A stretch of DNA of 64,000 nucleotides, taken from positions 50,164 to 114,163 of the forward strand of contig CAZCZZ010000002.1 in NCBI GenBank assembly GCA_964503335.1, read 5' to 3'. The position numbers and the translations under genes are program-made. Below the pieces are notes generated by a model that was given only the letters and a program-made list of their open reading frames with translations, was not told the origin of the DNA and made no database searches. This document shows positions 1-53,100 of this stretch, one piece after another. The DNA comes from an uncultured Verrucomicrobiota bacterium. GTDB taxonomy: Bacteria; Verrucomicrobiota; Kiritimatiellia; CAIVKH01. Position 1 is the first letter of the stretch, and the number at the start of each line of letters is the position of its first letter.

Positions 1-685
1 TCGATCAAACCTATGGGTTTTTCCTCCTCAAACCTCACACGGGTGGGGTGGGCGCGGGGCTGGAACGTGCCAGGTGGCGATCTTTCACTTTGCCACGGTC
101 GCGGATCTTCTCGAGAAAGCGGTGGAGGAGAAGGGGTCGTTAAGCCTTGGCATTACCCCTGCGCATTCGCAGCGTCTGGCGCGCCTTGTTGATGAATTGA
201 AGCCCCACTACGAACGCATGACGGTCAAGAGCCTGCTCGTGTTCCAGCGGGCGCTGCTGGACTTGACGCTGCTCGCCTTGGACCAGATTCCGGAGGAACC
301 GTCGGAGATCAAATCCGATTTCGCCCTGCGCAAGACCGACGCGGTTATGACGTGGTACATCGAACACATGGAGCAGCAGCCCAAGCTGGAAGAGGCTGCG
401 AAGGCTGTCAGCCTGTCGGTTCGCCATCTCCGCCGCCTCTTCCAGGAAGCCCGCCGCGAAAGTCCGCAGGAAGCATTCACGCGCCTGCGCGTGCAGCGCG
501 CGATGGACCTGTTGTCGCAGACCGACCGGAAGATGGACACCATCGTCGCCGCGTGCGGCTTCTCCAGCAGCAGCGACTTCTGCCGCGTCTTCAAAGCCCG
601 CCGCGGCATCAGCCCCGACCAATGGCGCCGCCAGATCCTCCGCGGCTGCAACGAATCCCACAGGGTAGAGTTCACACGGACCTGA
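1..685 (+). CDS. AraC/XylS-family transcriptional regulator, 5'-partial. The frame is open to the window start, GTG at 74 is the first possible in-window start, and the HTH_AraC domain lies at the C-terminus.
   Basis: Translation contains the AraC signature '...LRRLFQEARRESPQEAFTRLRVQRAMDLLSQTDRKMDTIVAACGFSSSSDFCRVFKARRGISPDQWRR'. There is no in-frame stop between nt 2 and 74, and 203 aa is short for the family, so the N-terminal sensing domain is probably upstream of the window. Confidence 0.75.
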   Translation, partial: RSNLWVFPPQTSHGWGGRGAGTCQVAIFHFATVADLLEKAVEEKGSLSLGITPAHSQRLARLVDELKPHYERMTVKSLLVFQRALLDLTLLALDQIPEEPSEIKSDFALRKTDAVMTWYIEHMEQQPKLEEAAKAVSLSVRHLRRLFQEARRESPQEAFTRLRVQRAMDLLSQTDRKMDTIVAACGFSSSSDFCRVFKARRGISPDQWRRQILRGCNESHRVEFTRT

Positions 686-687
686 TG

Positions 688-790
688 TGCCCACGGAGGT
701 CACGGATAGCACGGATGGGAAGGTCAGAGTCTGATGTAGGACTTATCTGAATTCGGAACACCCTCTTTATCCGTGACCTCCGTGGGCAAG
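688..790. repeat. MITE-like palindromic element, copy A: 21-bp terminal inverted repeats tgcccacggaggtcacggata / tatccgtgacctccgtgggca separated by a ~60-bp internal segment.
   Basis: Read directly: the arms at 688-708 and 770-790 are perfect reverse complements. The element starts 3 nt after the araC-like stop codon (683-685). Confidence 0.7.
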
Positions 791-837
791 CATCTTCTCT
801 GCTCAGAAGCAATCGCGTCGGTCATTCCTGAAATGAA

Positions 838-1212
838 TCAATCGTCGGGCCAGACGGACAGGTTGATTCGGTCGTAGGCTCCGCGTTTTGCGTCCTCGGG
901 GTGCGGTTCGATGGCGAGTATGGTGATTTCACCTCTATGGGGGCCATAGGCCCAGAAGAGTCGTCCGGCGGCTGGCGTGTTGTTTTCCAAGTACGATTGC
1001 CAGATCTTGAATCCGTGTCGGCGGGACAAGGGTTCAATTTCGTGGGTACCCAGACCGGGATGTCGGGGGTTTGCTTGCAGATAACCCAGGGCTTTAGTCA
1101 GCCGCTTGAAGTCCCTTGCCTCATCCTTGCCGAGGATGCCTTGGTCGTAGCGTCGCGTCAGATTCTTCCATAGCGCGTCCATGCCGGGGATGCCCATTCG
1201 TATTTTGAACAT
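838..1212 (-). CDS. Putative type II toxin-antitoxin toxin (RelE/ParE-superfamily-like; family assignment uncertain).
   Basis: 124-aa ORF placed 10 nt downstream of a small AbrB/MazE-like ORF on the same strand, which is the classic antitoxin-then-toxin order. The C-terminal 'GEITILAIEPHPEDAKRGAY' resembles the RelE/ParE C-terminal 'V.ILRV.H.R.D.Y' motif. Confidence 0.5.
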   Translation of the reverse strand: MFKIRMGIPGMDALWKNLTRRYDQGILGKDEARDFKRLTKALGYLQANPRHPGLGTHEIEPLSRRHGFKIWQSYLENNTPAAGRLFWAYGPHRGEITILAIEPHPEDAKRGAYDRINLSVWPDD

Positions 1213-1222
1213 CGGCGCGTTC

Positions 1223-1477
1223 CTACAAATACTTCTTCAATGCGATGGGGGCGGAAGCTTTTCCCTTCTTGAAGTGTCGCGCCGCCTGATCCAGCGTCTT
1301 CAGCGCTTTTTTTGAGACTAATTCCGGCGGAACCAATACTCGCGGCTCCAGCATCACGCGTCCGTTCTCATAGACTTTGACGGCGTAGTACTCCGACGCT
1401 GCCTCACGCAGCGTGATTCGACCCTTGGAGTCGAGGTGGGCATCGTATTCGCGCACAATAGTCTGTTTCATCGGCAT
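1223..1477 (-). CDS. Putative antitoxin with an AbrB/MazE/SpoVT-like swapped-hairpin fold (start MPMKQTIV at 1477; the ORF-track start at 1585 is probably an upstream extension).
   Basis: 85 aa with 'DSKGRITLREAASEY', matching the d.kGRvtiP loop of the AbrB/MazE fold. It ends 10 nt before the toxin ORF, and an operator-like palindrome sits just upstream. Confidence 0.5.
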   Translation of the reverse strand: MPMKQTIVREYDAHLDSKGRITLREAASEYYAVKVYENGRVMLEPRVLVPPELVSKKALKTLDQAARHFKKGKASAPIALKKYL

Positions 1478-1483
1478 GCCTTT

Positions 1484-1519
1484 CGCGTCTTGTGGTGGGA
1501 ATTCCCACCGCAAGACGCG
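1484..1519. promoter_or_regulatory. Putative TA operator: 17/18-bp inverted repeat cgcgtcttgtggtggga|attcccaccgcaagacgcg centred on a GAATTC site, 7 nt upstream of the antitoxin ATG. Candidate -10 (1520-1525, tacagt on the minus strand) and -35 (1542-1547, ttgcaa) lie just upstream.
   Basis: Palindrome read directly from the sequence. Its position overlapping the promoter/RBS is typical of autoregulated type II TA operons. Confidence 0.45.
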
Positions 1520-1624
1520 ACTGTATGGCAATGTTGAGCTGTTGCAAGTAGCGATTGTCCGTCCCGGGAGGTGTTTGGAACTCAAGAGGTCAGGAAGAGC
1601 TTCTTGACGACCGAAAAGGAATAT

Positions 1625-1729
1625 TGCCCACGGAGGTCACGGATTGAGAGGATGTTCAGAATTCAGAGAAGTCCGAATTCAGGCTCTGATCTTCCAATCC
1701 GTGCTATCCGTGACCTCCGTGGGCAATCA
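1625..1729. repeat. MITE-like palindromic element, copy B: same ~100-bp element as 688-790, in inverted orientation.
   Basis: Arms ttgcccacggaggtcacggat (1625-1645) and atccgtgacctccgtgggcaa (1709-1729). The internal segment is the reverse complement of copy A's internal segment at ~80% identity, including 'agcacggat(g/t)gg' and the 'gaattcgga' core. Confidence 0.7.
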
Positions 1730-1788
1730 ATCTCTTCTACTGTCCGTGTCCGTTCGACAGGTTCACGGCAGGGTTCCGTGGGCAGATC

Positions 1789-2433
1789 CTACTCGTTCCG
1801 CGCCGGAGCGTTGAAGGTGCGGTCGCCGGCGTCGCCGAGGCCGGGGACGATGAAGCCGCGGTCGTTCAGCTTCTCGTCGATGACGCACATATAGATCTGG
1901 GTGTCGGGGTAGGTGTTCTGCACGACTTTGACGCCTTCGGGGGCGGCGATCATGGAGAGCAGTTTGACGTTGCGCACGCCCCACTTGAGAACGGCCTTGA
2001 TGGCGGCGACGGCAGATCCTCCCGTCGCGAGCATGGGGTCGAGGATCATCGCAACTTCCACGGCGCCGCCGTGGGGGAGCTTCTTGTAATACTCGACGGG
2101 TTGCAGCGTCTTCTCATCGCGATAGAAACCGAGATGCCAGACCTCAGCCTCGGGAATCAGGTCAAGGACCGGATCCACCATGCCGAGGCCGGCGCGGAGA
2201 ATGGGCACGAGGCCGATTCGCTCGCCGAGGCGTCGGCAGGTTGTCGTGGCGAGCGGTGTTTCGACGGTCTGCGGCTTCAGTTCCAGATCCTTTGTCGCTT
2301 CGTACGCGAGAAGGGTGGAGAGGCGGCGCACCAGGCGGCGGAATTCGGCGGACGACGTGGACTTGTCGCGGAGCACGGCCAGGTGATGCTGGACCAGCGG
2401 ATGATCGATCTCGAACACGTTGTCCATGGCCAT
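1789..2433 (-). CDS. upp: Uracil phosphoribosyltransferase.
   Basis: The 214-aa translation from MAMDNVFEIDHPLVQHHL aligns along its whole length with Upp, including 'VPILRAGLGM', 'DPMLATGGS' and 'IPGLGDAGDR'. A GGAGGA Shine-Dalgarno sits upstream of the ATG at 2433; the ORF-track start at 2526 is an upstream extension. Confidence 0.9.
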   Translation of the reverse strand: MAMDNVFEIDHPLVQHHLAVLRDKSTSSAEFRRLVRRLSTLLAYEATKDLELKPQTVETPLATTTCRRLGERIGLVPILRAGLGMVDPVLDLIPEAEVWHLGFYRDEKTLQPVEYYKKLPHGGAVEVAMILDPMLATGGSAVAAIKAVLKWGVRNVKLLSMIAAPEGVKVVQNTYPDTQIYMCVIDEKLNDRGFIVPGLGDAGDRTFNAPARNE

Positions 2434-11122: not shown

Positions 11123-11139
11123 CCGAACCTTCTCTTCTG

Positions 11140-11203
11140 TAGCCGGGGTCGGTGACCCCGGATCGTAAATTCAGAAGTCCGGGGTCACCGACCCCGGCTA
11201 CAG
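11140..11203. terminator. Large GC-rich hairpin (25-bp arms tgtagccggggtcggtgaccccgga / tccggggtcaccgaccccggctaca) between the convergent giant amylase and nth genes; likely a bidirectional terminator. It overlaps the nth stop codon.
   Basis: Perfect inverted repeat read directly from the sequence. It lies between the two convergent 3' ends. Confidence 0.55.
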
Positions 11204-11842
11204 GGGGCGCGCCGACGGGCAGATGTCATTCAGCGGACATTCTCCGCACTTCGGCTTGCGCGCGATGCACGTGTACCGTCCGTGGAGGGTGATGCAGTGC
11301 GACCAGTCGGTCCAATCCTTCTCGGGCAGGATTTCGCGAAGTTCCATCTCGATCTTTGTCGCGTCGGTTTGCTTCGTGAGGCCGAGCAGCTGATTCAATC
11401 GAATCTGGTGCGTATCGATGATCAGGCCGGGCTTCTTGAATGCGTCTGCCATCAGAAGGTTTGCGGTCTTTCGGCCTATGCCCGGGAGCTTGATCAGCGT
11501 CTCGAGGTCTTCCGGCATCATCCCTGCGTGGCGTTCGACAAGAGCGGCTCCGAGGTTCCGGATGCTCTTCGCCTTGTTTCGATAGAAGCCCGTGGTGCGG
11601 ACTTCTTCCTCCAGCTTCAAAGGATCGGCATTCGCGTAATCCCTTGCAGTCCTGTACTTCTTGAATAGCGCGGGCGTGACCATGTTCACGCGCTTGTCGG
11701 TGCACTGCGCGGCGAGGATCGCGGCCACGGCGAGTTCGAGGGGGGTCGTGAAATCAAGCTCGCAGCGTGGGTCGGGAATCGCTTTGCGAAGTCTGTCGAG
11801 GACTTCTGCGGCGAAACGCTTCCTGGTTGCGACGTTCTTCAT
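11198..11842 (-). CDS. nth: Endonuclease III (DNA glycosylase/AP lyase, 4Fe-4S).
   Basis: HhH-GPD motif 'LIKLPGIGRKTANLL' and C-terminal Cys cluster 'CIARKPKCGECPLNDIC' (C-x6-C-x2-C-x5-C); 214 aa. Confidence 0.9.
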   Translation of the reverse strand: MKNVATRKRFAAEVLDRLRKAIPDPRCELDFTTPLELAVAAILAAQCTDKRVNMVTPALFKKYRTARDYANADPLKLEEEVRTTGFYRNKAKSIRNLGAALVERHAGMMPEDLETLIKLPGIGRKTANLLMADAFKKPGLIIDTHQIRLNQLLGLTKQTDATKIEMELREILPEKDWTDWSHCITLHGRYTCIARKPKCGECPLNDICPSARPL

Positions 11843-11890: not shown

Positions 11891-12000
11891 GGTAGGGCGA
11901 ACCGTCCCGGTGAGCCGGATGGAGAACGCGGCTTACCGGGACGGTTCGCCCTACCAAAAGAAGAACCGTGATCCGTCGCTAAACGGATCACGGTTTTCGT
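11891..12000. terminator. Two consecutive stem-loops downstream of pnp: gggtagggcgaaccgtcccggt...accgggacggttcgccctacc, then gaaccgtgatccgt-cgctaa-acggatcacggtt flanked by A and T runs. Likely bidirectional rho-independent terminators.
   Basis: Inverted repeats read directly. The second hairpin is followed by TTTT on the plus strand and preceded by AAAAG, which gives U-runs in both directions. Confidence 0.55.
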
Positions 12001-37307: not shown

Positions 37308-38180
37308 GTGATGACCAGATCTGGGCTCAATTTATTGCCGGGGTGTATCGTTTTACTTGGCTCGCTGTTTGCAGGCTTTGTAGAGGCGCAGGATTTTCCT
37401 CTCTACGTCGCATCGAAGTATGTCATCGAGGATGAGGATGATCAGCCACTTCGGGGACTCGATCCAGCGGGAGAGGCCCTTGGACTCCCGAGGGAGAAGG
37501 GTGCCGTCGTTCAAATCCTCGGCGCAAGCGCCGGAATCTTCCCGCCCAATGCCGACGGTTCGCCCAATCTGCAGAATCCCTTGCTGGGCACTACACGTAC
37601 TGGCATCGGTGCCGCTCTTTCGCTCTCTGCGCGCGGTCGATTTGGCGCGACCGTTGTGCCCCGACCCACAACGCCTGTATTCGTCCGCGTATTTAATGGG
37701 CCGGAACTCGCGCTTGCGACGCGTTATGGCGATTCCCAGACCTTTGTGAGCGTGGACAACACGCCGTTTCTCGCCGACATCGAGGAGACGGGCGCTGCAT
37801 TTGCGACGGACAGCGATGGCGACGGACTGAACAACTACTACGAGGGCCTGCTCGGCTCAAACGCCAACCTGACCGACAGCGATGGCGACGGCGTGGCGGA
37901 CGGAGACGAGTACCGCGCTGGCTCTGGAATCGCCAACCCCTCCTCGTTCCTCGGCATCACCACGTTGAAGAAGGAAGCTTCCGGTTTCTGGACCATCGGT
38001 TGGGAATCCTCGACCGGGCGCACCTACTGCGTCGAATACAGCGGAATCGGCCTCTGCCAGGGACCAATCTACTCGATGGTCTGTCCCATGGTCACCGCTA
38101 CGAGCACCACGACCACCGTCCAGGCATCGATCCCCGGATCCGGCGGCGACGGCCATTTCCGCGTGAGGTTGATGGAATGA
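37308..38180 (+). CDS. Small secreted protein (290 aa) with a signal peptide and a dockerin-like double Ca2+-loop C-terminal module. Its stop overlaps the start of the downstream giant gene.
   Basis: N-terminal 'LNLLPGCIVLLGSLFAGFVEA' signal peptide; 'DSDGDGLNNYYEGLLGSNANLTDSDGDGVADGDEY' double loop. The TGA at 38178-38180 overlaps the ATG at 38177-38179. Confidence 0.7.
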   Translation: MMTRSGLNLLPGCIVLLGSLFAGFVEAQDFPLYVASKYVIEDEDDQPLRGLDPAGEALGLPREKGAVVQILGASAGIFPPNADGSPNLQNPLLGTTRTGIGAALSLSARGRFGATVVPRPTTPVFVRVFNGPELALATRYGDSQTFVSVDNTPFLADIEETGAAFATDSDGDGLNNYYEGLLGSNANLTDSDGDGVADGDEYRAGSGIANPSSFLGITTLKKEASGFWTIGWESSTGRTYCVEYSGIGLCQGPIYSMVCPMVTATSTTTTVQASIPGSGGDGHFRVRLME

Positions 38181-41100
38181 TTTCTCGTGATTCCCAAGCA
38201 GATGAAACGCGCGGACTTGGGGTTGAATATCCAATCCGGTGGAGCATAAATGTGGCTATAGAACCCAGATCGGATCGTCATGCCCGATCCACGTGCCTGC
38301 GACAAAGAGGATGGGCGACACATTCCGCGCTTCGCGTCGCGGCGCTCGCCACGGTCCTGACGGGGTCCGTCAGTCATGCAGAATTGCTGCTGGGGTTCGA
38401 TCTGCTGGGTCAAGGCGGTTCTCAAGTAACGACTACCAACACGGTTGCTGCAGCGAACATCTCGACGGCAGCGCCTAATGCCCGAATCACGAGGGGTTCG
38501 GGGCTTCAGTCAAGCACGGCAAGTGATTCCATGTCGTCCAGCAGCTGGACTTTGCCTGGGGCTGCCACGGTTGCGAATGCCATTACCAGTAATGACTATT
38601 TTACGGTGAGAGTGGTTCCTGAAGCGGGTTATCTTATCGACGTTACCAACTTCTCGTGGAGAACAACGCGAAGCGGGACAGGACCGACCAACTACAACCT
38701 TCGCGCCGGCAACGACGGTTTCGCGTCTGATATAGCGACTTGGCTCAACAAGGGTACTACGTCCAACTTCGTGACCACTGTCAACATTACCGGCTCCACA
38801 GGCGTGGAGTTCAGAATCTACGGCTACAGCACCCACAACAACGGCGGTACTGCACGAATCGCTCATGGTGCCGATTTTGGTCAATCGGGAATCGACTTGG
38901 CCATATTTGGCACGGTGAATGCGTCAGGTCCGGATGTTGGAGTCCTGGGTAATAACACGCTGGTCGCTGACGGCGACACTACGCCCGCCTATGCGGATCA
39001 TACCGATTTCGGAAACGTCGGACTCAATCAATCCAATCTGGTCCGTACTTTCACGATCACAAACAGTGGAACGGCTTCGTTGGGGGTTGGTAACATTACG
39101 ACGTCCGGAACTCATGCAGCGGACTTCATTGTGATCGCTCAGCCCTCGAACGCTCTTGCGGCTGGCACCATCTCCACCTTCCAAGTGCGCTTCGATCCGT
39201 CGGCCACCGGCACCCGCACCGCGACGATCCAGTTCACGAATGATGCAGCCGGCAAGTCACCCTACGACTTTGTCGTCCAGGGCACTGGCGTTGCTGCGGG
39301 TATCCTTCGCAGTCCGACGTCGATCACCGTCACGACGATGGTGGGCACAGCGCTCGGGACATCCAGCTTCGGGGTTACGAATGTCGGCCTCGGTCGCCTC
39401 GACTACACGATTTCGACAAACGCCGCGTGGCTCTCCGTATCGCCGACCTCAGCCAATCTCGCGGAAACGGGAGGGCAGCAGGAGACGATCACCTATAGCG
39501 TGACAGGACTCTCCGGCGGCACGTCCAACGCGACGGTCACGATCACGGATTCCAACGCATCCAACAGCCCGCAGACCGTCAGCGTCTCTCTCGTGCTCAC
39601 CAACATTCCCGATCCCACGGCGCAGAGTGCAACGGGTGATGGCAAGGAGATGATGCGGCTTGCGTGGACCAAGCACAGCTCCTTCAACGTGATGATTGTC
39701 TACCAGCTCGGCAGCGCCCCGGCCTCGCCCCAGCAGGGAACAGCCTACAGCGTGGGCGACAGCGTCTCCGGCGGCGGCACGGTCGTCTACAGCGGCACGG
39801 GTGCCACCCTTGAGCACGTCGTGCGGACCAATGCAACGCACTACTACGCGTTCTACTCGATCAACAATAACCACTACTCGCCGGGCGTCTCCGCGAACGC
39901 GGCCACGCCGGCTTATGGCGACGGGGAGATCGTGGACGCCATCGCGTACACCAACGGTGTGACAATCAACGGGGTGAACGGCGGCAACGGCTGGACCAGC
40001 GCGTGGTCCGTCGGTTCCGGCACGTGGACTGCGGAAACGTCCTCGCTGACCGTCGAAACCAACTACCCGACCGAGTATGCCAACCGCATCCGCGTGGCCG
40101 ATCCGGGCAACGGCGGCCAACCCTATGCGACGCGCAAATTCGCAGCACAGTCAAGCGGCACGCTCTATATGGCAGCTATCGTCAGCTACCAGTATCAGGG
40201 CCCGTGGAAGTTCGCTGGCTTCTCCTTTGTCTCGAATGCCACCGAGAAGGTCTTCATCGGCAAGATCCCGAACAGCGAGAACAACCGCTTCGGCTTGACG
40301 TCCACGCGGAATGCGACGGATTACAAGACGTCCGGCGTGACCCTTGGCGACTTCAACACCAGCACCGGCAACGTGTACCTGATGATCGGCACGTATGACT
40401 TCAGCACGCGCGACTTCAAGGCCAAGGTCTATCTGCGCACCACCGTCGTGCCCGAGACGGAACCGGGATCGTGGGATGTGGCGACCAATCTGCCCGCCAA
40501 TTACGCCAACAGCATCGACGGTATCCGGCTTGCATCCGGCGCATTGGGTGCTCCCGATGGAAGCATCGGCCAGACCCTTTATGACGAAATTCGCGTCGCC
40601 ACCAACTGGGCCGGCTTGCTGCGCATCGTGGCCGAACCGGAAATCGCCGTGCTGGGAACGAACAATGCCGTGGTGACGTCGGGCGATGCCTCGCCGGCGA
40701 CAGCGGATGGCACCGACTTCGGAAACGTTAACTTTGCCGGCAGTGTGAGTTTCACCAACGTCTTCTCGATCACGAATTCCGGCAACGCCAACCTCGTGCT
40801 CACCAGCATCAGCACAAGCAGCGCCATGGGCGCGAGCGCGGACTTTACGGTGATCTCGTGGCCGACGACCGTCCTGGCGGGAACGCGGTCGAATCTTGTC
40901 ATCGCCTTCAACCCTGAAACCACGGGCCTGCGCACCGCGCTTGTCAGCATCGCAAACAACGACTCCGACGAGAATCCTTACACCTTCGTCGTGCAGGGCA
41001 CAGGCACCGGCTATTTCGAGACCATCACGTTCCAGGGCTTCGAGGGATCGGGTACCGACACCTGGAATTACCTGTTCGTTTCAAACAACCCCGGAACGGA

Positions 41101-44100
41101 AATCTATGTCGATGGATCCACGAACGCCTCGGGCCTTTACGCCGTGGCCCTGCGTGGGTCGGCGAGTTCGAACGCCGATCCGTATGTCGAATTCGACAAC
41201 ATCGACATCAGCGCCTACGCCGTTGTGACCCTGCAGGTGGCGTTCGCAGTCGCCGGGATCGACAGCGGAGACGATCTCGAGCTGGATCTCTCCTACGATG
41301 GCGGAACAACGTGGAACGGACCCGGCAGCACGACGCTCGTCTTCGGCGCCAACAACACCAATCTCGGGTTCACGGGCATCGGTTCCACCACGGTGGCTTC
41401 GAATCCCTGGTTTGTGAGCCTGCCATCGACATCGAAGCAGGTGAAGGTGCGCATCCGGTTGGACGAATCGTCGAATGACAACTCGTTTGATCGCACCTTT
41501 GCTGACAATATCCGCCTTACCGGCGCGAATGCGGCGCCGCGCGTCCGCTTCAGTGCGGCGACGTACTACACCACGGAAACCAACGGCACAGTGACCATAC
41601 CGGTCACCATTTCCTCCTCCGCAGATGCCACCGTCCGCGTTGCGCTCGCCGGGTCGGCCCTGATCAACAGCACCAACGACTACACCGTCAACGGAACGAA
41701 CATCATCTTCGCGGCCGGCGGGACGACGACGTCGAACGTCGTGTTGACCCTGGTCGACGACACGGCCGCCGAAGGCCTCGAGGAGATCAACCTGCAGCTC
41801 GTGAATGGGCAGGGGACCGTGCCGGGTGATTCCGCTGTCACCGTGGTGCTGTTGCAGGATGACGATGCGTTTAGCGTCATGTCAGCCAACCTTACTGCCG
41901 GAACCAACATCGTCGACGGCACCTACACGTATGACGAAACGGCGCAGCGCATCATCCGCCGGCTTCGCCCGGACGTGCTGGCGATCCAGGAGTGGAAGTT
42001 CACCAACGCAAGTGCGCGTGCCTTCGTCGATTCCGTCCTTGGCACGAACTACTACTACTACATCGAGCCGGAGTCCGATCCCAACCCGATCCCGAACGGC
42101 GTCATCAGCCGCTGGCCGATCACCGTTTCCAACCAGTGGACTGACACGTTCGTGGGCGCCCGCGACCATGTGCAGGTGACCATCGACATTCCTGGTCCGC
42201 GTGACCTCCATGTAGTCTCGACACATCTCAAGGCAGGCACTTCGGATGCAGCCACGCGCCTTGACCAGGTGCGGGAACTCACCAACTACATCGCGACGGC
42301 GGCGTTCCCTACGAACGACTACCTCGTTGTGGCTGGCGACTTGAACCTGACGAACCGCACAGAGACGACGTTTGTCGTTCTGACGCAGGTGGTCACCGAT
42401 GCGCGGCAACCGGCCGATACGGAGGGCAACGTCAATTCAAGCCTCGGGAAGACCTCGCCCTTCGACCATGTCCTCCCGAACAACGTGCTCAACAACGTGC
42501 ACCTGACGAACCGCATGGCCGGCTTTGCCTTCACGAACGGCATGATCTTCGACACGGCCCAGTTCGACGATCACCTGCTCCCTGCGCTGGTGGAAGATTC
42601 CTATCCCACGAATCGCGCCCATCACGCCGTGCTCAAGCTCTTCAACTTGTCCACCGCCGCCGTGCCTCCCACCGTCACGACCACGATCGCATCCGCGACG
42701 AATCTCACGACGGCGACATCCGGCGGCAACGTTACATCAGACGGGGGTGCCTCTGTCACGAATCGCGGCGTCGTCTGGAGCACGAGTCCGGGTCCAACGG
42801 TCCCCGGACTGCAGACCACCAACGGCACAGGAACGGGCAGCTTCTCCTCGACGCTCACCAACCTGACTCCGGGCGGAACGTACTATTACAAGGCGTTCGC
42901 TCAGAACAGCGTCGGCACGGGCTACGGCGCCGAATACTCCCTCACGACGCCGTGCTTCTCGGGCATTGTCACCGGCCTTCTGGTCACCGTCACCAACGAC
43001 ATCGACTTCACGCTCACATGGAGCAATGTGCAGTATGCGACAGGATTCCAGCTCGATGTAGCCACCTCGGCGACATTCAGCACATCGGGTACGCAGGACG
43101 ATTTCACGGACGGCGACTTTACCAATAACCCTGCGTGGTCGGGCGACGCGACGGGCTATACGAATCTCACGGCTGGAACTTTACCGAGTGGTGTAGCCTC
43201 CACTGACGGAAATTACATCGGCAATCCCGCGTCGACCTCCGGCAACAACATCATGACCATCGCCTCGAGCGAGACGTCGGAATGGCGCTTCTCCCTGGGC
43301 AGTACGACCTTCAGCCCCTCGTCCGCCAATCACTTCGGCGTGATTCTCATGTCGGACAATGCTGTCCAGGGCGATGTCACGACAAACAGCTTCAACGGCT
43401 ACTATCTCCGTGTGGGTGTTGACGGCGCCACGGACTACCTTGAACTGTGGCGGAGCTCAGGCACGACCAAGACGAAGATCGGTGACTACACCACGCCGGG
43501 CAATTTCGGCGCCGACGGGCTTGAAGACGGTCTGGACCTGCGCATCACACGCAACGGAAGCGGCGTCTTCGAGCTGTTCTACGCTACCGGGTTCACGTAC
43601 GCCTCCACACCGACCAGCAACGGAGGAACGCTAACCAATACGACACATTCCAGCTCCTCCTACTTCGGCGTCTATTCGCGCTTCGCCAACACGGGTCGTC
43701 GCGTCTACATCGACAATATCCAGCTAGGGTCGGGCTCAAGTTCATATGTTGCAGGCTATTCAAACCGGGCAGTCGGCGCGACAAGCGCGACGGTGACCGG
43801 ACTAACCTCCGGTGCGACGTACTACTATCGCGTCCGTGCCACAAACGAATACTGCGTGAGCGCCAATTCCGTGACCGGCACCGTGACCACGGTGCTTCTG
43901 GCGCCGGACATCGCCGTCTATGGCAACAACACGCTGATTGCGGACGGCGACACGACGCCGGCTTATGCGGACCACACCGATTTCGGAAGCGTCGGCTTCA
44001 TCAACTCGAACCTTGTGCGCACGTTCACGATCACCAATACCGGCACGGGTTCACTCACCCTGGCCAACGTCACCACGAGCGGAACGGCTGCGGCGGACTT

Positions 44101-47100
44101 TATTGTGCTGTCGCAACCATCTACACCGGTCGCCGCGGGCGGAACCACGACGTTCCAACTTCGATTTGATCCGTCAGCGACGGGATTGCGCACGGCGACC
44201 GTCCAGTTTGCGAACAACGTAACCGGGAAGAATCCCTACGACTTCGTGGTGCAGGGCACGGGCGTTGCGGCGGGCATCCTGCGCAGCCCGACCAGCATCA
44301 GCGTGACGTCGATGGTGGGCAGCGCCCCGGCGGCGGCAGGGTTCGGCGTGACGAATGTCGGCCTGGGCCAGCTCATCTACACGATCAGCACCAACGCCCC
44401 GTGGCTCTCGGTGAGCCCGACCGGCGACACGCTCTGGGAGACGGAGGGCCAGCAGCACACGGTGAGCTTCAGCGTGACCGGATATGGCGCGGGGACTTCG
44501 AATGCCACGGTCACGATCACGGACAGCAACGCGTCGAACAGTCCTCAAACGATCGCGGTGTCGATGGTTCTGACCAATATCCCGGATGCCACCTCGAACG
44601 TGGCCACGAACGACGGAAGTGAACTGATCCGTATTGCGTGGACAAAGCCCGGGAGTCTCGATGTCATGATCGTGCACCGCGGTACCAATGCGCCCGTCGC
44701 GCCGACGCAGGGCACTGCGTACAACGTGGGCGACGCCGTCGGATCCGGTGGCGGTCGCGTCGTGTATAAGGGTGGCGGCGCGTACCTTGATCACGTTGTC
44801 AACCCGGGTAGCGACAATTACTACGTCTTCTACGCCGTGAACAACAACCACTACTCGCCCGGAGTCACGAACGTGGCGACGACACCGGCCTACGGCGCGA
44901 GCGAGCGCGTGGAGCAGTTCGGCTATACCAACGGCGTGTCGTTGAGCGGGCTTGGCGGGGGCAATCTCTTCACGAGCACCTGGTCGGTGGGGGCGGGCAA
45001 CTTCACGGTCCTGAGCAATGGCCCGACGCCGAACCTTTACGCCAACACCAATTATTCGGCCGAGGCGGCGCAGCGCGTGGTGAGCAGCAACTACGTCAAC
45101 GACACCGAAATGCGCGCGAGCCGGCGCTTTGCGGCGATCACCAATGGCTCAATCTACATCTCGTACCTCGTCGCCGTGGAATACGGTGGCGCGGGCAAGT
45201 ACACGGGCGTCCGCGCGTTGTCGAACACCACGGAACGATTCTTCGTCGGCGAAGGCGGAGGCAATGACCTGCTCGCCATCGATGGCTACGGAGGTGGCAT
45301 CCAGAACACGGCCTTCAACATCAACTCCTTCCAGTCGAATACCGGAAACGTCTACCTCGTCGTCGCACGCTATATTTTCAGCAGCAACCATGTCTCTGTG
45401 AAGGGCTACTACCGGACCGATACCGTGCCCGAGGCGGAGCCGGCGAGTTGGGATACATCCGTAACGGCCAGCAGCGACCGGTCGTACATCGACGGCATTG
45501 AAATCGTCAGCGGCGGCTTCTCCGGCAACCAACCAGGCCTTGTGGCCTTTGATGAAATCCGCGTCTCGACCAACTGGGCGGGCATCGTTCCTCCGTCGGG
45601 TGTCCCCGGAATCGGTGTCAATCCCTCCAGCGTGACGGTGTCGGTCATGCGCGGCTCAAGTCCTGCCGCCCAGACGTTCACCGTGACGAATGTCGGCCAG
45701 GGCGCCCTCAATTACAGCATCTCAACGAGCGTGAGCTGGATAGCCGTCGCACCGGTTGCCGGGTCGTTATCGGCCTTCCTGGGGCAGATCCACACCTCGT
45801 CGTTCAACACCGTTTCTCTCCCCGTCGGCACGAATATCGCCACGGTGACCGTCACGGCACCGCTTGCGTCCAACTCGCCGGTCACGGTCACCTACAACGT
45901 CATTGTGACGAACATTCCGCCGCCCACGAACGTGATCGCCAGCGCCGATGGCTACGAGATGGTCCGCCTCGGGTGGTCCCCGCCGCCCGGCCTGCCGACC
46001 GTGATGATCCTGCACGACGATGTGCCGATTGCCACGGATCCCTCGCAGGGAACGCTATACAATGTGGACAGCGCGGTGGGGCTCGCGCGCGTCATCTACA
46101 AGGGAACGAACACGTCGCTGGAGCACATCGTGGCGCCGGGATCCACGAACCACTACGCATTCTACGCGGTGAACGGGAACTACTATTCCACGGATGGTTC
46201 GTACACCGTCATCGAGTGTCCGGACACGACCGCGACCAACCTTGTAGCCGGTGACATTGCCATCTTCGGCTTGAACACGCTGACATCCGGCAGCACCAAC
46301 TACGACAGCTTCGGGTTCATCACGCTCACGGACCTGCCGACGGGGACGGCGATCAACTTCACCGACAATGGCTGGCGGAGCAACGACACCTTCAGGACCG
46401 GTGAGGGAACGATCACATGGTCGGCCACGAGTTGCGTGCCTGCGGGAACGGTGATCCGCTGGATCTCGACGAACACCCCGCAGGTCACGGTCGGAAGCAT
46501 CACGACCAATTCCTCATTCGCCCCGAATATCGACGGCGAGCAGGTGCTGGCCTACCAGGGCCCGGCAACCAACCCCACGTTCATCTATGCCCTCGGATCG
46601 CACACCGATGGCGTCTGGCACGTTGACGCGACGGATACGCATGAGTCCGCCTTGCCGCGTGGATTGACGAACGGCCTGACGGCCGTCGTCATCGCCGAGC
46701 TCAACAATGTTGTCATCAGCACAAACACGCTGGCGATTTCGGGCGATCGCGCCGCCATCCTCTCCTACTTTGGCAACACGAACAACTGGGTGGGCGATGA
46801 CAGCATCATCTTCGACCTCCTTGCGTACAACTTCTCGTTCCCCGACCTGAACACCAGCGGCGGCGGCGTGATGACCAATGTCACGATGGGCTTGTACCGT
46901 ACGAACGAAATCGTCGATGTGTTCGCGTACACGAATGGAAACTCGATCTCCTCGCCGGCGCGAAACGGTGGTTGGGGCTGGACCTCGACCTGGACCGGAG
47001 CGGCGGGAACGTGGACAGCCCTCACGAACAACACCGCCGAGATCTCCTTCCCCTCACAGCCCCTGTATCCGACGAATGCTGCAAATATCCTCAAGCTCAC

Positions 47101-50100
47101 GGATCCCGGCGTCAGCACGACCGGCCGCATGCATCGCTATTTCCAGGCTGTCACGAACGGTAGCCTCTATTTCTCAGGCTTCCTGTCCTACCAGTATGAA
47201 GGCTTTAACAAGTTTGCAGGCTTCAGCTTCATGAGCGGCGGGGCCGAGACCGGTTTCATGGGCAAGATCTCTTCGCCGAGCCATAGCTTCACGCTCGGTA
47301 TAGACACGTATGGAGGCTCCCGCGTGTTCGCCGCCTACGACCTGCGCGGCCAGGAGAACAGCACCAACAACACCTACCTGATCGTCGGCAAATACGACTT
47401 CGATACGGACCTGATCACGGTGCAGTCGTACTACCGCGGCGTTGCGGTGCCTGACACGGAGCCCGCGGATTGGGCCGCCACCGCGACCGTGTCCGGCGCG
47501 GGCATCTCCCTCATCGATGGCATCCGCGTCCACGGCGGCGCCGATGTGGGCACGATCGGCAATTGCTACTTTGACGAAATCCGCGTCGCGTCATCATGGG
47601 GCGCCCTGATCAACAGGAATCCCCCGACGGTCCTCACGCGACCCGTCTCCAACATCCTGATCTCCGCCGCAACCGGCGGCGGCGAGGTCACCTCGGATGG
47701 TGGCGCGACCGTCACGAATCGCGGCGTGGTGTACAGCACGAATGCGCTGCCGGTCTTGACCGACAGCCGGACATCCGATGGCACGGGCACCGGGATCTAC
47801 GCCAGCGTCATGACCAACCTGATCGCGGGCGAGACCTACTATGTGCGGGCCTATGCCCAGAACGCTGCGGGCACGTCGTTTGGCGCCGTCTCCAACTTCA
47901 CGACGCTGTGCTTCACCTCTGTCGTGACGGGCCTCTACGCGAACCCGACAAACAGCACAGACTTTACTGCAAACTGGTCGGCCCTTACCGGAGCGGCCCG
48001 CTACCAGCTCGATGTCTCCTCCGTATCCAACTTCACGGGCAATGCCCCGAACTACGGCGTGGAGGTGTTCACCAACATCGGCGGCGGCACATCGAGCAGC
48101 TACCTGCAGCGCAACTGGACGAATAACAATATCGCCTGGAGCGCCTTTGGCGCGCGCACGGACCAGACCATCGATGGCGCGGCGATTGCGCTGGAAGACG
48201 CGAGCGGTGCCTACATTGTCAGCGGCAGCATCACAGGCGGCATCAGTGAGCTGTCCGTGGTCCACCAGATGAAATTCTCGGGCGTGGGCAGCACGTTCGA
48301 CATCTTCGTCAACTCGACCAAGGTGGCGACCAACGTCGCCTTTGATGCCAACATCCAGACGGCGCGCGTGACAGGAATCAATGTCAGCGGCAGCTTCACG
48401 ATCTCGATTTCCAACCGGGCCACATCTGCGGAGCAGTTGGCCCTGGATACGCTGACGTGGACGAATGACAGCTCCGCCGGCTCGTTCATTGCCGGGTATG
48501 ACTCGCGCTCTGTGACGGGAACGAGCCAGAGCGTCACCGGACTCCTTGAAGGCGCCACGTACTACTTCCGCGTGCGCGCCGTTGGCGGCGGCTCGTGCGT
48601 CAGCGGCAACTCATCCACGGTCACCGTGGTCACCGTGGACAACCGGGGACCAAGCCTCTTTGCCTTCAATGTGGACAACAGGACCAATACCGACGCGATG
48701 ATCCGGAACGGGTTCGCAGTCACAGGCCTGGTGTACGATGCAGGGTATGGTGTCTCCAATGGCGTGAGCACACCGTACTACCTGATCCGGAACAATGCGG
48801 GCACTACGGTTGCAGCATCAAACAAGTTCACAACGGCGCCCGCCAATGGTTCGGTCGTGACCGGGAATCTCGCCGGCACCTTCAGCGCAGTGCCGCAGGC
48901 CGACGTGACGCTGGGCATCTACACCGCCATCGTCGGAGCAGTCGATCTGGTTCCCAATGTAAGCGTTTCGAACTTCTTCTTCACGGTGGTGGACGACGAC
49001 ACGAACATCCCCGAGCAGGTTACCCTGATGTCGACCAATACCGGCGGCGGCAACCTGCGCTTCATGCAGATTTCAATCGGCGCCGCCAATATCACGTTGG
49101 GTGGGGGCGCCACCTCCAACCTGTTCTATCCGACGACGGACGGCGCCCTCGCCGCTGTGGCCGCGGCAAATCCGCTGCTCTTCTGGATGGGCGCGCGCGA
49201 TGAATCCGGGCTCAATCGCGGTACCAGCACCCCGACGACCAACATGAACTTCACGCTCGATGCGATCGTGATCAGCAACACGGCGAACTTCGACGCGACG
49301 CGCAGCTCCAGCTTCGCGAGCACGACCAATACGCGCGCGACCAATGTCTGGGCCTGGACATCGCCGTTCACAAGCGACGAGCTGACGACCTTGATCACCA
49401 ACACCGTCAACGGCCTCGGCACGAATCGCATCAGCCTCAGCCTCTTTGACGCAGATGACGACCGGATTGGCGATGCGTTGACGCTGATCGACCGCCAGTA
49501 CGGATATCTTGTCGTGACGGACGATGACACGGTTGTTCCGACGGTGGGATCGACCGATATCAACGGCGTCGGCGCCGCCGGCCAGCTGTACACCATCTTC
49601 ACCGAAACCATGGGCACCGCCGGCACCAGCGGGGAGAGCATCGCCACGCACGAGACCAACAACCGCTTCGACAACACGGCCTTTACCATGAGTGGCACAG
49701 GCGACGCCCGCACCACGACGGCATCCACCGGCTACGACGGCGCATCGGGCTCGTTCAATATTCTGCTCAACGCCGTGGGCGAGACTTTCATCATCGCCGA
49801 CATCAATTCGTCGGCATACACGAACATGAGCCTGGTCTTCGGTGTGTACAAGAGTTCCACCTCGGAGAACGGCTCGAGCCTGGTCGTTGAAGTGAGCACG
49901 AATGGAACGACATGGAACACGCTGACCATTCCGGCGCTGCCCACGGGCGCGGGCACCGCCGACTGGTATTCGCGCACCAATTCCGCAGGGACGATACCAT
50001 CAGGCACGAATCTCCAGATCCGGTTCACCGGCAACACCACGTCCGAGCTCCGTCTTGATGACGTGAAGCTCATCAACTTGATCACGGACGTCTCGCTGAC

Positions 50101-53100
50101 CGACGGACAGATCGCGTCCGGCGGCTACGTTGTCACGTCCCGTGTCAGCGACGCCACCAGCGGTATCGCCGTGAGCAATGCGTTCGCCCCCAGTTACCTC
50201 ATCCTCAACCAGCTCGGCAACCTCGTGGTCTCGAACACCTTCACCACGCCCTTCGCAAACGGCGGAGGCCTGACGCTCACATCGGTGTATTCGACCGCCG
50301 CCGCGGCTGTCAGCACCAACGTGGTCACGTTGGGGATCTATACGACAACGGTCTATGTGACGGACGCCGATGCGGACCGGAACGGCGACCGACTTTCCAG
50401 CACCGGCACGCCGTTCAGTTTCACGGTGATCGATGATGACACGAACGCGCCTGTTGTTTCGGCCTTCCAGCTTGCGGGCGGCACAACCAACTTTGACCTG
50501 AGCCTTGGCTCCATCGCCATAACCGGTCTCCTGACCGATGCATCGAGCGTTCAGTACGGCGGCCTCACCCACATCCTGCTCCTCGACAACACCGGAGGCA
50601 TTGCCCAGAGCAACAGACTCTTCGCCGGCACTGGCTCGGCGGCTACCGGCACGCTGTCCGACGCCGGACTGAACTGCGGCAACATCTATACGGTCCGGCT
50701 GTTCGCGGCGGACGCCGACCTTGATCGTCCCGCGGACCAGCTCTTCGTGACGAACATGGCCCTGGTGATCCAGACCACAGGCACGGGCGGTCCCGCAGAC
50801 TATCCGATCGCGAGCAACCTGCTGGTAAGCGGCTCCACGGCGGCGCCGACGACCACGGTATTCGACGCAACCATTCGCACGGGCGGTTGGAGCCTCGCCA
50901 TGAGCCTGTCGCATCCCGTGGGCGTGTTTACCAATGCGACATCGCCGTCGTTCCGTGTGACCAACCTGGTCGCAGAGGTTATTGCGTTGATGCCCTGGAG
51001 CAACGCGGTGCAGTCGGGCAACACCTACTTCTTCACGAACGCGCCGCTGCCCGGCGCGGCCTACGCATCAGTCAACACGGGCATCCATTTCGTGGTGTGG
51101 TCCGCCAGCAACCAGGGCTCGTGCGTGGCCAGCATCATCGACCGTCCCGTCATCACCGGTGGCACGAACGTATTCGCGGTCGTGGATGAAGACGAGGCCG
51201 TGCCGGTCCTGAGCGGCTTCACGCTCCCGGGCGGAGGCAGCACAGTCTCTGTGGCGACTGCGTTCTCCGGATTTGCCATCACGGGCCTGATCCAGGACGC
51301 GGGCAGCGGCGTGGCCTTCACCTCGCAGCCGCCCTATGCCCTGTTCTATGACGTCAGCGGAAGCGTGCTGGCGAGCAACGCGATGCTTGGCGGAACGGAG
51401 GGCAATGGAACGTCGCCCGTCGCGTTCACCAACTGGTTCTCCGGCATCACCCTGAGCTGTGGAAACTTCTACACGGTGCGGGTCTTTGCGGCGGATGCGG
51501 ATAATGACCGCGCCAGCGACCGGACCTCGGTGAGCACCAATGTCATGGTCGTGGCGACGGAAGGATCCGGCGGCGATGCGCCGACAGCGCAGGACCTCCT
51601 CGTCAACAACACGGCCGCATCGTCTGTAACGCTGTACGACGAAACGATCGCTACAGGCGGATGGCAGGTTGCCCTCGTCATGTCGCACTCCTCGGGCAAT
51701 ATCGTCACCAACGGCCCGAATGCCCCTTCGTTCCTCGTCCAGAACCAGACAGGAACGCATGTCTATTCCACCTCTCCGCTGGTCTGGAGCAACATCGTGA
51801 AGTCAGGCGTGACGTACTACGCGACGAACACGCCGATGCCCGCAGCCAACACAAACTGGATTACGACGGGAACGTACAGCTTTGTCTGGTCCGCCCAGAG
51901 CGACGGTCTCTGCTTTGGAGTGACCAACGGAAGCGGCAATATCAACCCCGGGACGAACAAGTTCCTCGTGGTCGACGACGATGTGATTCCGCCGAACATG
52001 TCCGGCATCAGCGTGGCAGGGGGTACAGGCTCGGTGAGCGGTGCCTCGGACTGCGCGGACCCCACGGCGACCAATCTCCTCGCGGGAGACATAGCGATCT
52101 ATGCGATCAATACCAAGACAGGGTCGGGCACAAACAACGACAGCTTCGCCTTTGTGGCCCTCGTCGATATTCCGACCGGAACGCAGATCAAGTTCACCGA
52201 CAACGGATGGAAGAGCAGCACCGCATCGTTCCGCAATAACGAGGGCACGATTACCTGGATGGCGACGGGCTGTGTCCCTGCGGGCACATCCATTCGCTGG
52301 ATCGCCACGAACACGCCGCTGGTGAGCAGCGGGCAGATCATCGCCACCAACGGAACGTTCGCCCCCAACATCCAGGGCGAGCAGATCCTCGCGTATCAGG
52401 GATCTGAAAGCAGCCCGAACTTCCTGTATGCGGTCAACGACCGCCTGAACGGCATCTGGGACGTGGACGCGGTTGACTCCCATTCGTCCGCGATTCCTCC
52501 CGGCCTGATCGATGGCTACACGGCTGTAGCCGTCGGCGAGTTTGATAACATCATCATCAACACGAACAACCTCACGATCACCGGGGATCGAGACCAGATC
52601 CTCTATTACATTGGCGACAAAGACAACTGGATCGGGTCCGACACCAATGTGTTCGATCTTCTCCAGTTCAACTTCACATTCCCCGACGCCAACGCGGGCG
52701 GTGGCGCAGTAACGGACCAGGACATTCTGTTCGGCGGCTGGAGCATCACGGGCCTCGTGCAGGATGTCGGGAGCGGATTGCTCGTCAGCAACGGTCCCGC
52801 GCTTCGCTATGTCGTCCTGAACACGAACTCCGGCGTCGTGGTGTCCAACTACTTCTACACGACCTTCACGAATGGCACGAAGGTCGAGCAGAACCTCTCC
52901 AATGCGGTGAGCGCAGGCAGCTACAGTCTCAACCAGCTCGGCACCTTCACGGCCCAGCTCTACGCGGCGGATGCCGATGTGGACCGGATCGCAGACCACG
53001 CCGAGCGCAATACGAACGTGCCGTTCCAGGTTGTTGATGATGACACGGACTACCCGCAGATCGGCTTCTTCTATATCAACGGCCAGACCACGATCACCAA

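Follow-up and report, generated by a model that had tools for sequence, protein, structure and literature searches.

The araC-upp junction of an uncultured Verrucomicrobiota bacterium, contained in a 64,000-nt stretch of contig CAZCZZ010000002.1 (hereafter the window), carries a putative toxin-antitoxin (TA) gene pair between two inverted copies of a 101-nt palindromic element, an arrangement that shares features with several described systems. In TIME-COMP, cargo lies between two Tn3-derived miniature inverted-repeat elements (TIMEs) (Szuplewska et al. 2014, PMC4133298). Similar to the present locus, two short non-autonomous elements in the same or opposite orientation surround a core of a few genes without a transposase, and the flanking copies may be non-identical. 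Despite this likeness, the TIMEs are 262 bp in length, with 38-bp Tn3-type repeats and target duplications of 5-6 bp, and their transposition was caught (PMC4133298), whereas the elements here are 101 bp in length, differ by 21% in their interiors, and have no target duplication, no known transposase and no second copy elsewhere.

The element also resembles REPINs, which are doublets of repetitive extragenic palindromic (REP) sequences forming hairpins (Bertels & Rainey 2011, PMC3116915, PMC3337134). Both are extragenic hairpins of ~100 nt at gene 3' ends, in which the inverted arms are conserved and the spacer between them, though little conserved, remains partly paired. There are differences in the arms, which possess an imperfect palindromic core in REPINs, whereas those of the present element have a direct 9-nt periodicity and no internal palindrome. 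In addition, REPINs number from tens to hundreds of copies and are accompanied by a gene for the REP-associated tyrosine transposase (RAYT), compared to the two copies and one fragment known here, with no RAYT gene in the window.

Correia and ERIC elements are palindromic intergenic sequences of 100-150 bp with terminal inverted repeats of ~20-26 bp, whose hairpins are co-transcribed with the neighboring genes and affect termination and mRNA stability. Both families are multi-copy in each genome, and Correia elements duplicate a TA dinucleotide. The present element has a similar palindromic anatomy and, as expected of a MITE (miniature inverted-repeat transposable element), is short and non-coding with terminal inverted repeats; by contrast, neither many copies nor a TA duplication, or another target-site duplication, is seen here. 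Palindromic bacterial MITEs such as Correia and ERIC were reviewed by Delihas (2011, PMC3184786). As a 2009 study is summarized in that review, the ccdO157 TA pair lies between folA and apaH in a variable, REP-associated spacer. Going by this summary, ccdO157 is likewise a TA pair in the spacer of two conserved metabolic genes whose presence varies among relatives, but it belongs to the CcdAB family, and the REPs, present at this position in roughly half of the isolates, are not described there as a matched inverted pair bracketing the TA genes. Altogether, both bracketed cargo (TIME-COMP) and a TA pair in a REP-associated spacer (ccdO157) have precedent. The statement of a preliminary description of this locus, that TA modules between inverted miniature elements are not a standard feature class, was therefore overstated, as cargo between miniature elements has already been described, e.g. 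TIME-COMP (PMC4133298).

We favor, with moderate confidence, that the palindromic elements are lineage-restricted MITE/REPIN-like hairpins, which today would serve an acquired TA operon as flanking terminators or insulators.

The insertion and the hairpin element

The locus has the following features, in positions of the window:

74-685, plus strand: 3' part of the gene for an AraC-family regulator (Pfam HTH_18/HTH_AraC)
688-788: element copy A, palindromic and 101 nt long, whose terminal inverted repeat is perfect over 21 bp and whose ends read TG...CA
838-1212, minus strand: putative toxin of 124 aa, with a predicted fold of the RelE/YoeB/ParE superfamily, from a large unannotated family
1223-1471, minus strand: upstream partner of 82 aa, putative antitoxin/autorepressor (an alternative start at 1477 gives 84 aa)
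1483-1520: 38-bp palindrome, putative operator, 11 nt upstream of the ATG (z = -8.6)
1520-1547, minus strand: putative promoter read by eye, with -35 TTGCAA (1547-1542), a 16-nt spacer and -10 TACAGT (1525-1520)
1625-1725: element copy B, inverted relative to copy A, with a 20-bp perfect inverted repeat (22 bp counting the flanking AT/AT)
1775-1788, minus strand: solo arm fragment, GATCTGCCCACGGA, abutting the upp stop codon and recognized by a 10-mer match
1789-2433, minus strand: upp, uracil phosphoribosyltransferase (Pfam UPRTase, 9e-74)

Among 5.8 billion proteins, the closest other lineage is represented by contig L033, which shares the gene order glycoside hydrolase, araC, upp and giant amylase-like protein. 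The protein identities are 81% for the upstream glycoside hydrolase, 61% for the AraC-like protein, 81% for Upp and 83% for the giant amylase-like protein. The araC-like and upp genes of L033 converge, with an overlap of 26 nt. The DNA homology between the window and L033 stops at position 654 and restarts at 1791, leaving 46 nt in L033 compared to 1136 nt in the window, which identifies positions 655-1790 as an insertion. The AraC-like protein, 275 aa in full on sister contigs (with the full-length gene on L004), has in the window a C-terminal tail 13 aa shorter than that in L033, and the last 14 residues of Upp are unchanged. Other AraC homologs (58-64% identity) have different neighbors, which leaves L033 as the sole informative empty site. 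Thus, positions 655-1790 are lineage-specific DNA wedged into a junction that overlaps in the nearest relative. The preliminary description had suspected an insertion at this housekeeping junction and had proposed a search for an empty site in relatives; the comparison with L033, which lacks the araC-upp spacer, bears out the former and supplies the latter. With the empty site visible in a relative, the locus provides a clean, dated example of a TA cassette landing in a gene-dense chromosome.

The arm of the element, TGCCCACGGAGGTCACGGATA, has four matches in the window at up to three mismatches, located at 688-708 (plus), 768-788 (minus), 1625-1645 (plus, one mismatch) and 1705-1725 (minus), compared to none in 100 shuffles. 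A repeat finder returned an inverted pair of 102 nt (688-789 and 1624-1725), 89% complementary and 834 nt apart, and alignment of copy A against the reverse complement of copy B is ungapped, with 11 differences over 101 positions (89% identity). The arm matches, the alignment and the repeat finder all confirm two inverted copies of a palindromic element around a two-gene module, as the preliminary description had it. The locus had also been placed correctly, with outer limits of 790 and 1729/1730 that include 2-5 nt of flank, and the 21-bp perfect terminal repeats assigned to both copies hold for copy A but not exactly for copy B.

The differences between the two copies are all interior, with none at the 49 arm positions and 11 at the 52 interior ones (Fisher p = 5.6e-4); the interiors are 79% identical, and the identical ends measure 29 nt and 20 nt. 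Each arm consists of three CACGGA motifs at 9-nt spacing (CACGGAGGT-CACGGATAG-CACGGATGG). Either strand of each copy is predicted to fold with an energy between about -57 and -62 kcal/mol, which corresponds to z-scores of -7.3 to -8.3 relative to shuffles. The element is non-coding, as the sole frame open throughout (CPRRSRI...IRDLRG) has no protein match in 5.8 billion clusters. An apparent extension of the A/B similarity into the flanks (ACACGGAC...TGAT) was no better than in shuffles and was rejected.

TA pairs are common integron cargo, and the elements are imperfect palindromes of attC-like length. An integron-type gene cassette with attC-like hairpin sites is nevertheless effectively refuted: no copy end has a GTTRRRY or RYYYAAC core site, the copies are inverted rather than in a direct array, and the window contains neither an integrase nor further cassettes.

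The 10-mer TGCCCACGGA occurs a fifth time at 1775-1784, compared to 0.22 copies expected in the whole window. It marks a solo arm of 10-14 nt, absent from the preliminary description, which is either what is left of another, third copy or a favored target. Copy A begins 2 nt past the araC-like stop codon (683-685) and lies 49 nt past the toxin stop codon, and copy B lies 63 nt past the upp stop codon (1789-1791) and ~100 nt upstream of the TA promoter. The two copies show the same polarity to the incoming host transcript. The tract following copy B in the upp direction, AAUAUUCCUUUUC, is T-rich, the minus-strand continuation of copy B being AATATTCCTTTTCGG, and the tract following copy A in the araC direction, CAUCUUCUCU, is moderately T-rich.

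The shared polarity toward host transcription with T-rich tracts following, the stronger constraint on the arms than on the interior and the finding of the element nowhere else would all agree with hairpins intrinsic to the cassette, namely non-mobile terminators, insulators or RNA-processing sites that stem from local duplication or from the donor. We consider this explanation unlikely, as no such hairpins accompany related cassettes, among them one whose toxin is 78% identical and whose operator core is shared, and a terminator has no need of 21-bp perfect stems with 59-nt loops. Moreover, both the TG...CA ends and the arm fragment at 1775-1788 resemble traces of element turnover.

GAATTC occurs 23 times in the window, and four of these sites lie inside the 1.04-kb unit (749, 1499, 1659 and 1675), where ~0.4 would be expected. 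Copy A holds one of them, copy B holds two, and the remaining one is at the operator center; the enrichment is weak.

The population of the window is represented in several ENA and Logan assemblies, the ENA samples including ERZ27296200 and the ERZ9261xx runs of PRJEB19935. The contigs of these assemblies agree in arrangement and orientation, with 99.5-100% identity in this region. These contigs bear on the idea of an invertible segment, in which the 101-nt inverted repeats recombine and the TA cassette works as a DNA switch. Inverted repeats of ~100 nt around a segment of 834 nt would suit such a switch, but all junction-spanning contigs from independent samples have one orientation, and no recombinase is encoded nearby. 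In addition, the promoter lies inside the segment, so that inverting the segment would leave the on/off state of the operon unaffected. An invertible segment is thus highly improbable.

Strain-level single-nucleotide polymorphisms (SNPs) are concentrated in the interior of copy A, with four in 59 nt compared to five in 1141 nt (p = 5.5e-4). The four, at 736, 742, 744 and 766 (spanning 31 nt of the copy A interior), are linked in two haplotypes that show no coupling to the SNPs on either side, at 672 and 1510, and the 634-nt TA coding sequence has at most one SNP. The cluster fits either hypermutation of the hairpin DNA or gene conversion by copies that were not seen. A structure-preserving (wobble) role of these SNPs was dropped, as the haplotypes fold differently, with similar energy.

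Independent assemblies (L008-L018, L037 and L038) break at every strong palindrome of the locus, 1479-1520 and both element copies included. Such breaks were considered as a sign of a multi-copy repeat, which was rejected; since they also occur at the 38-bp operator palindrome, contig ends are uninformative on copy number, and the 22-nt contig overlaps fit the four local 21-mers. In one contig (L006, positions 1-82; ENA ERZ926116 k127_370811), 82 nt of unrelated sequence replace copy B and upp. The join is at ~1584, 41 nt inside of copy B, and the 82 nt match none of the other loci compared. This contig end is either an assembly chimera or a structural variant.

The putative toxin-antitoxin pair and its control region

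The partner gene lies upstream and the toxin gene downstream, in the same direction and with 10 nt between them. Homologs of the 124-aa protein form 1353 90%-clusters, all of them unnamed or hypothetical. We predicted its structure by AlphaFold2 with 68 homologs (pLDDT 80.6, pTM 0.75), and the model consists of a strand, two helices, a short helix and three strands. The best Foldseek matches in the PDB are nearly all toxins of the RelE superfamily, including Sa2YoeB, HP0892, archaeal RelE, HigB2, YafQ and ParE. Sa2YoeB is matched with a probability of 1.00 and a target-normalized TM-score of 0.71-0.72, and the top five matches (YoeB, HP0892 and RelE) have probabilities of 0.99-1.00 and target-normalized TM-scores of 0.58-0.72. 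Six residues are invariant (R84, Y89, E102, H104, E106 and Y113) and cluster after the last strands, at a position matching that where YoeB and RelE carry their catalytic residues. The putative toxin would be a ribosome-dependent mRNA endonuclease.

The 82-aa partner has 304 representative clusters. Its homolog precedes the toxin homolog in a cassette with a 78%-identical toxin (L027/L028), and the two are paired likewise in a lineage from peat or soil metagenomes (L029-L031), on Lactobacillus helsingborgensis plasmids and on one Streptomyces venezuelae plasmid. The neighbors of these homologous pairs include Fic, RelA/SpoT, MazEF, an integrase, methyltransferases and AAA ATPases, which are typical of TA/defense islands. 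The pair is thus co-inherited as a unit in unrelated genomic contexts and across phyla. On the plasmids NZ_CP084390.1 (L035) and NZ_CP018075.1 (L036), RefSeq annotates both members just as “hypothetical protein”. The pair family spans Verrucomicrobia-type metagenome-assembled genomes, Lactobacillus, Streptomyces and cyanobacteria, with no model in Pfam, NCBIfam or PADLOC. An AbrB/MazE identity of the partner, suggested by its DSKGRITL motif, was rejected, being unsupported by Pfam or by hhalign, which gave a probability of 4.9% against a set of AbrB/MazE sequences.

The G+C content at third codon positions (GC3) is 0.66-0.68 in the TA pair compared to 0.77-0.83 in the host genes. By this composition the pair is of foreign origin and appears to be horizontally acquired.

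The 38-bp palindrome upstream of the pair was overlooked in the preliminary description. Most sister contigs have it in perfect form, and in the window it has a single mismatch. Its core, GTGGGAATTCCCAC, is found again upstream of the cassette in L027, whose toxin is 78% identical. Judged by the putative promoter, transcription would start inside this palindrome.

Compared to YefM-YoeB and RelBE, the pair has the same order with the antitoxin gene first, a short intergenic distance and a putative operator, palindromic and located at the promoter, and its toxin model can be superposed on YoeB and RelE. It differs from them in lacking sequence membership of a curated family and in the toxin, which is ~35 aa longer than YoeB or RelE. 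Moreover, the partner is not recognizably Phd/YefM, RelB or AbrB/MazE. The RelE/YoeB-like predicted fold, the conservation of the two-gene module across phyla, the upstream palindrome and the foreign GC3 make it plausible that the cargo is a type II TA pair, and the TA nature first attributed to it can be retained at that strength.

By sequence comparison, this TA family is unnamed in any curated library, and it is the most useful by-product of the analysis. The locus flags a family of RelE-fold toxins with more than 1300 sequence clusters, found on Lactobacillus, Streptomyces and cyanobacterial plasmids and without a curated library name. Models for the toxin family and its partner would improve the annotation of TA and defense islands.

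Proposed origin and role of the hairpins

We propose that a horizontally acquired type II TA-like operon landed at the araC-upp junction. It would be composed, in order, of a weak sigma-70-like promoter, the 38-bp operator over the start site, the 82-aa antitoxin/autorepressor and the 124-aa toxin. As the only known copies of the element sit in a spacer that is nonexistent in the relative, the elements arrived either with or after the cassette. Most likely of a non-autonomous MITE/REPIN kind, they may have colonized the newly gained non-coding DNA to either side of the cassette; alternatively, and less likely, they may have brought the cassette in as a composite. Within the 3'-terminal parts of the transcripts from araC, upp and the TA operon, the copies would fold into hairpins of ~-57 kcal/mol, and could serve as terminators, insulators, 3'-end stabilizers and exonuclease barriers. 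Co-transcribed REP, ERIC and Correia hairpins are known for such terminator, insulator and stabilizer action. In this role, the copies would keep araC transcription from running antisense through the toxin gene and upp read-through from overriding the TA autoregulation, and would also end the TA transcript and shield araC and upp from the TA operon. Palindromic repeats would thereby have ended up exactly where transcriptional insulation is needed. The analysis shows the anatomy of the repeat, the insertion, the fold of the toxin, the conserved pairing of the two genes and their foreign composition, and from these we infer toxicity, autoregulation, termination by the hairpins and mobility of the element.

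Several results weigh against this proposal. The relative L033 is close only at the genus level, so that the exact ends of the insertion cannot be set. Both proteins of the pair lack a useful match in Pfam, NCBIfam, PADLOC, PHROGs and PDB sequences, and the Foldseek E-values of the toxin model are modest (7.5e-3 to 2e-2 for the top five). The partner has no Pfam match among 42 family members and no recognizable DNA-binding fold, and its single-sequence model is poor (pLDDT 63.5), which renders a fold search of that low-confidence model meaningless. The promoter matches 8 of 12 consensus positions and falls under the scan threshold. Neither hairpin was called in a terminator scan, which found no classical loop-plus-U-tract signature, and for this reason termination by the hairpins is something that we infer. 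Regarding the element itself, copy A has no target-site duplication (..GATG / AGCA..), and no transposase, integrase or RAYT was found among the mid-size open reading frames (ORFs) of the window. Its mobility is thus without support from target-site duplications, extra copies or a cognate transposase.

The searches for further copies covered several collections. Scanning for the exact 19-mer of the arm gave three isolated matches in 185,579 reference (GTDB representative) genomes, eight in JGI metagenomes and none in IMG/VR viral contigs; these matches lie in unrelated, mostly coding contexts without a partner arm, and were rejected as element copies and attributed to chance. A two-copy profile run by nhmmer (--max) over the window and all 40 loci found nothing outside this locus, blastn of the element against plasmids gave no match, and Rfam returned only sub-threshold miRNA-hairpin noise. 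Hidden copies in protein space were not found either, as no protein in the 5.8 billion clusters shares three 5-mers with the open frame of the element. The known set therefore comprises two full copies and one arm fragment, all within 1.1 kb, in the 64 kb plus ~10 kb of flank, and this own-genome count covers ~74 kb that are dominated by giant genes with few spacers.

In line with the composite origin mentioned above, the cassette and both copies may have moved as one piece, as a composite MITE transposon mobilized by a transposase acting in trans on the outer 21-bp TG...CA ends, in the manner of composite transposons driven by IS elements or TIMEs. The outer ends are indeed identical inverted repeats with TG...CA termini, both copies are seen solely around the cassette, the site is empty in the relative, and there is experimental precedent for cargo mobilized between two miniature elements in either orientation (PMC4133298). 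However, no direct repeat flanks 688 and 1725 (CTGATG compared to ATCAAT), and no second composite or element copy was found in any collection searched. At copy B, the flanking AT/AT is self-complementary and indistinguishable from an extension of the palindrome. If the solo arm were the true right end, the flanks would be GATG at 688 and GATC at 1784, an ambiguous pair because GATC is its own complement. The interiors of the two copies are 21% different, no transposase was seen, and homologous cassettes elsewhere lack the element; in L027, whose toxin is 78% identical, the DNA similarity is confined to the coding region (847-1456), with no flanking inverted repeats. We therefore regard a composite transposon as rather unlikely, and the MITE delivery suggested in the preliminary description finds no support in the missing target-site duplication of copy A and of the composite, the confinement of the copies to this locus or the element-free L027 cassette. 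If the hairpins were mobilizing ends, the locus would add, outside Proteobacteria, a second case of experimental grade in which miniature elements captured cargo.

A more speculative reading, to which we assign a low probability, is a self-contained mobile hairpin-TA-hairpin cassette of an undescribed kind, in which the CACGGA palindromes would serve both as recombination ends and as bidirectional terminators. Such a cassette would insert precisely into overlapping 3'-3' junctions without target duplication, for example by a single-strand hairpin-recognizing enzyme, with the unannotated RelE-fold TA family as its addiction module.

Other hairpins and genes of the window

In addition to the CACGGA element, the window contains other long hairpins at gene ends. 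One at 11137-11203 has a perfect 26-bp stem and a 15-nt loop (CTGTAGCCGGGGTCGGTGACCCCGGA ...), and each of its arms carries an imperfect palindrome and a GTAG head; it sits between the convergent ends of a 2819-aa gene and the endonuclease III gene. Another long perfect palindrome at 11891-11955 has a 27-bp stem (GGTAGGGCGAACCGTCCCGGTGAGCCG) and a GTAG head, and is adjoined by the classical hairpin-plus-T-run terminator of the PNPase gene at 11958-12000. The endonuclease III gene (11198-11842) is thus also bracketed by two long hairpins, of different families.

The hairpins at 11137-11203 and 11891-11955 are unrelated in sequence to the CACGGA element, and by their anatomy they look more like classical REPINs than that element does. 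Given these long hairpins at gene ends, this genome has a habit of carrying hairpin repeats where genes meet at 3' junctions. As they belong to different sequence families, the arms of the CACGGA element are not an ordinary REP sequence present in every intergenic region, which the preliminary description had named as the finding that would overturn it.

The remaining genes of the window are housekeeping genes (endonuclease III, PNPase, succinyl-CoA ligase and pirin) or encode giant proteins. Two giant ORFs, at 14946-37031 (7361 aa) and 38000-55474 (5824 aa), contain many diverged internal repeats of 40-300 nt, and their products are probably surface or adhesin-like proteins.

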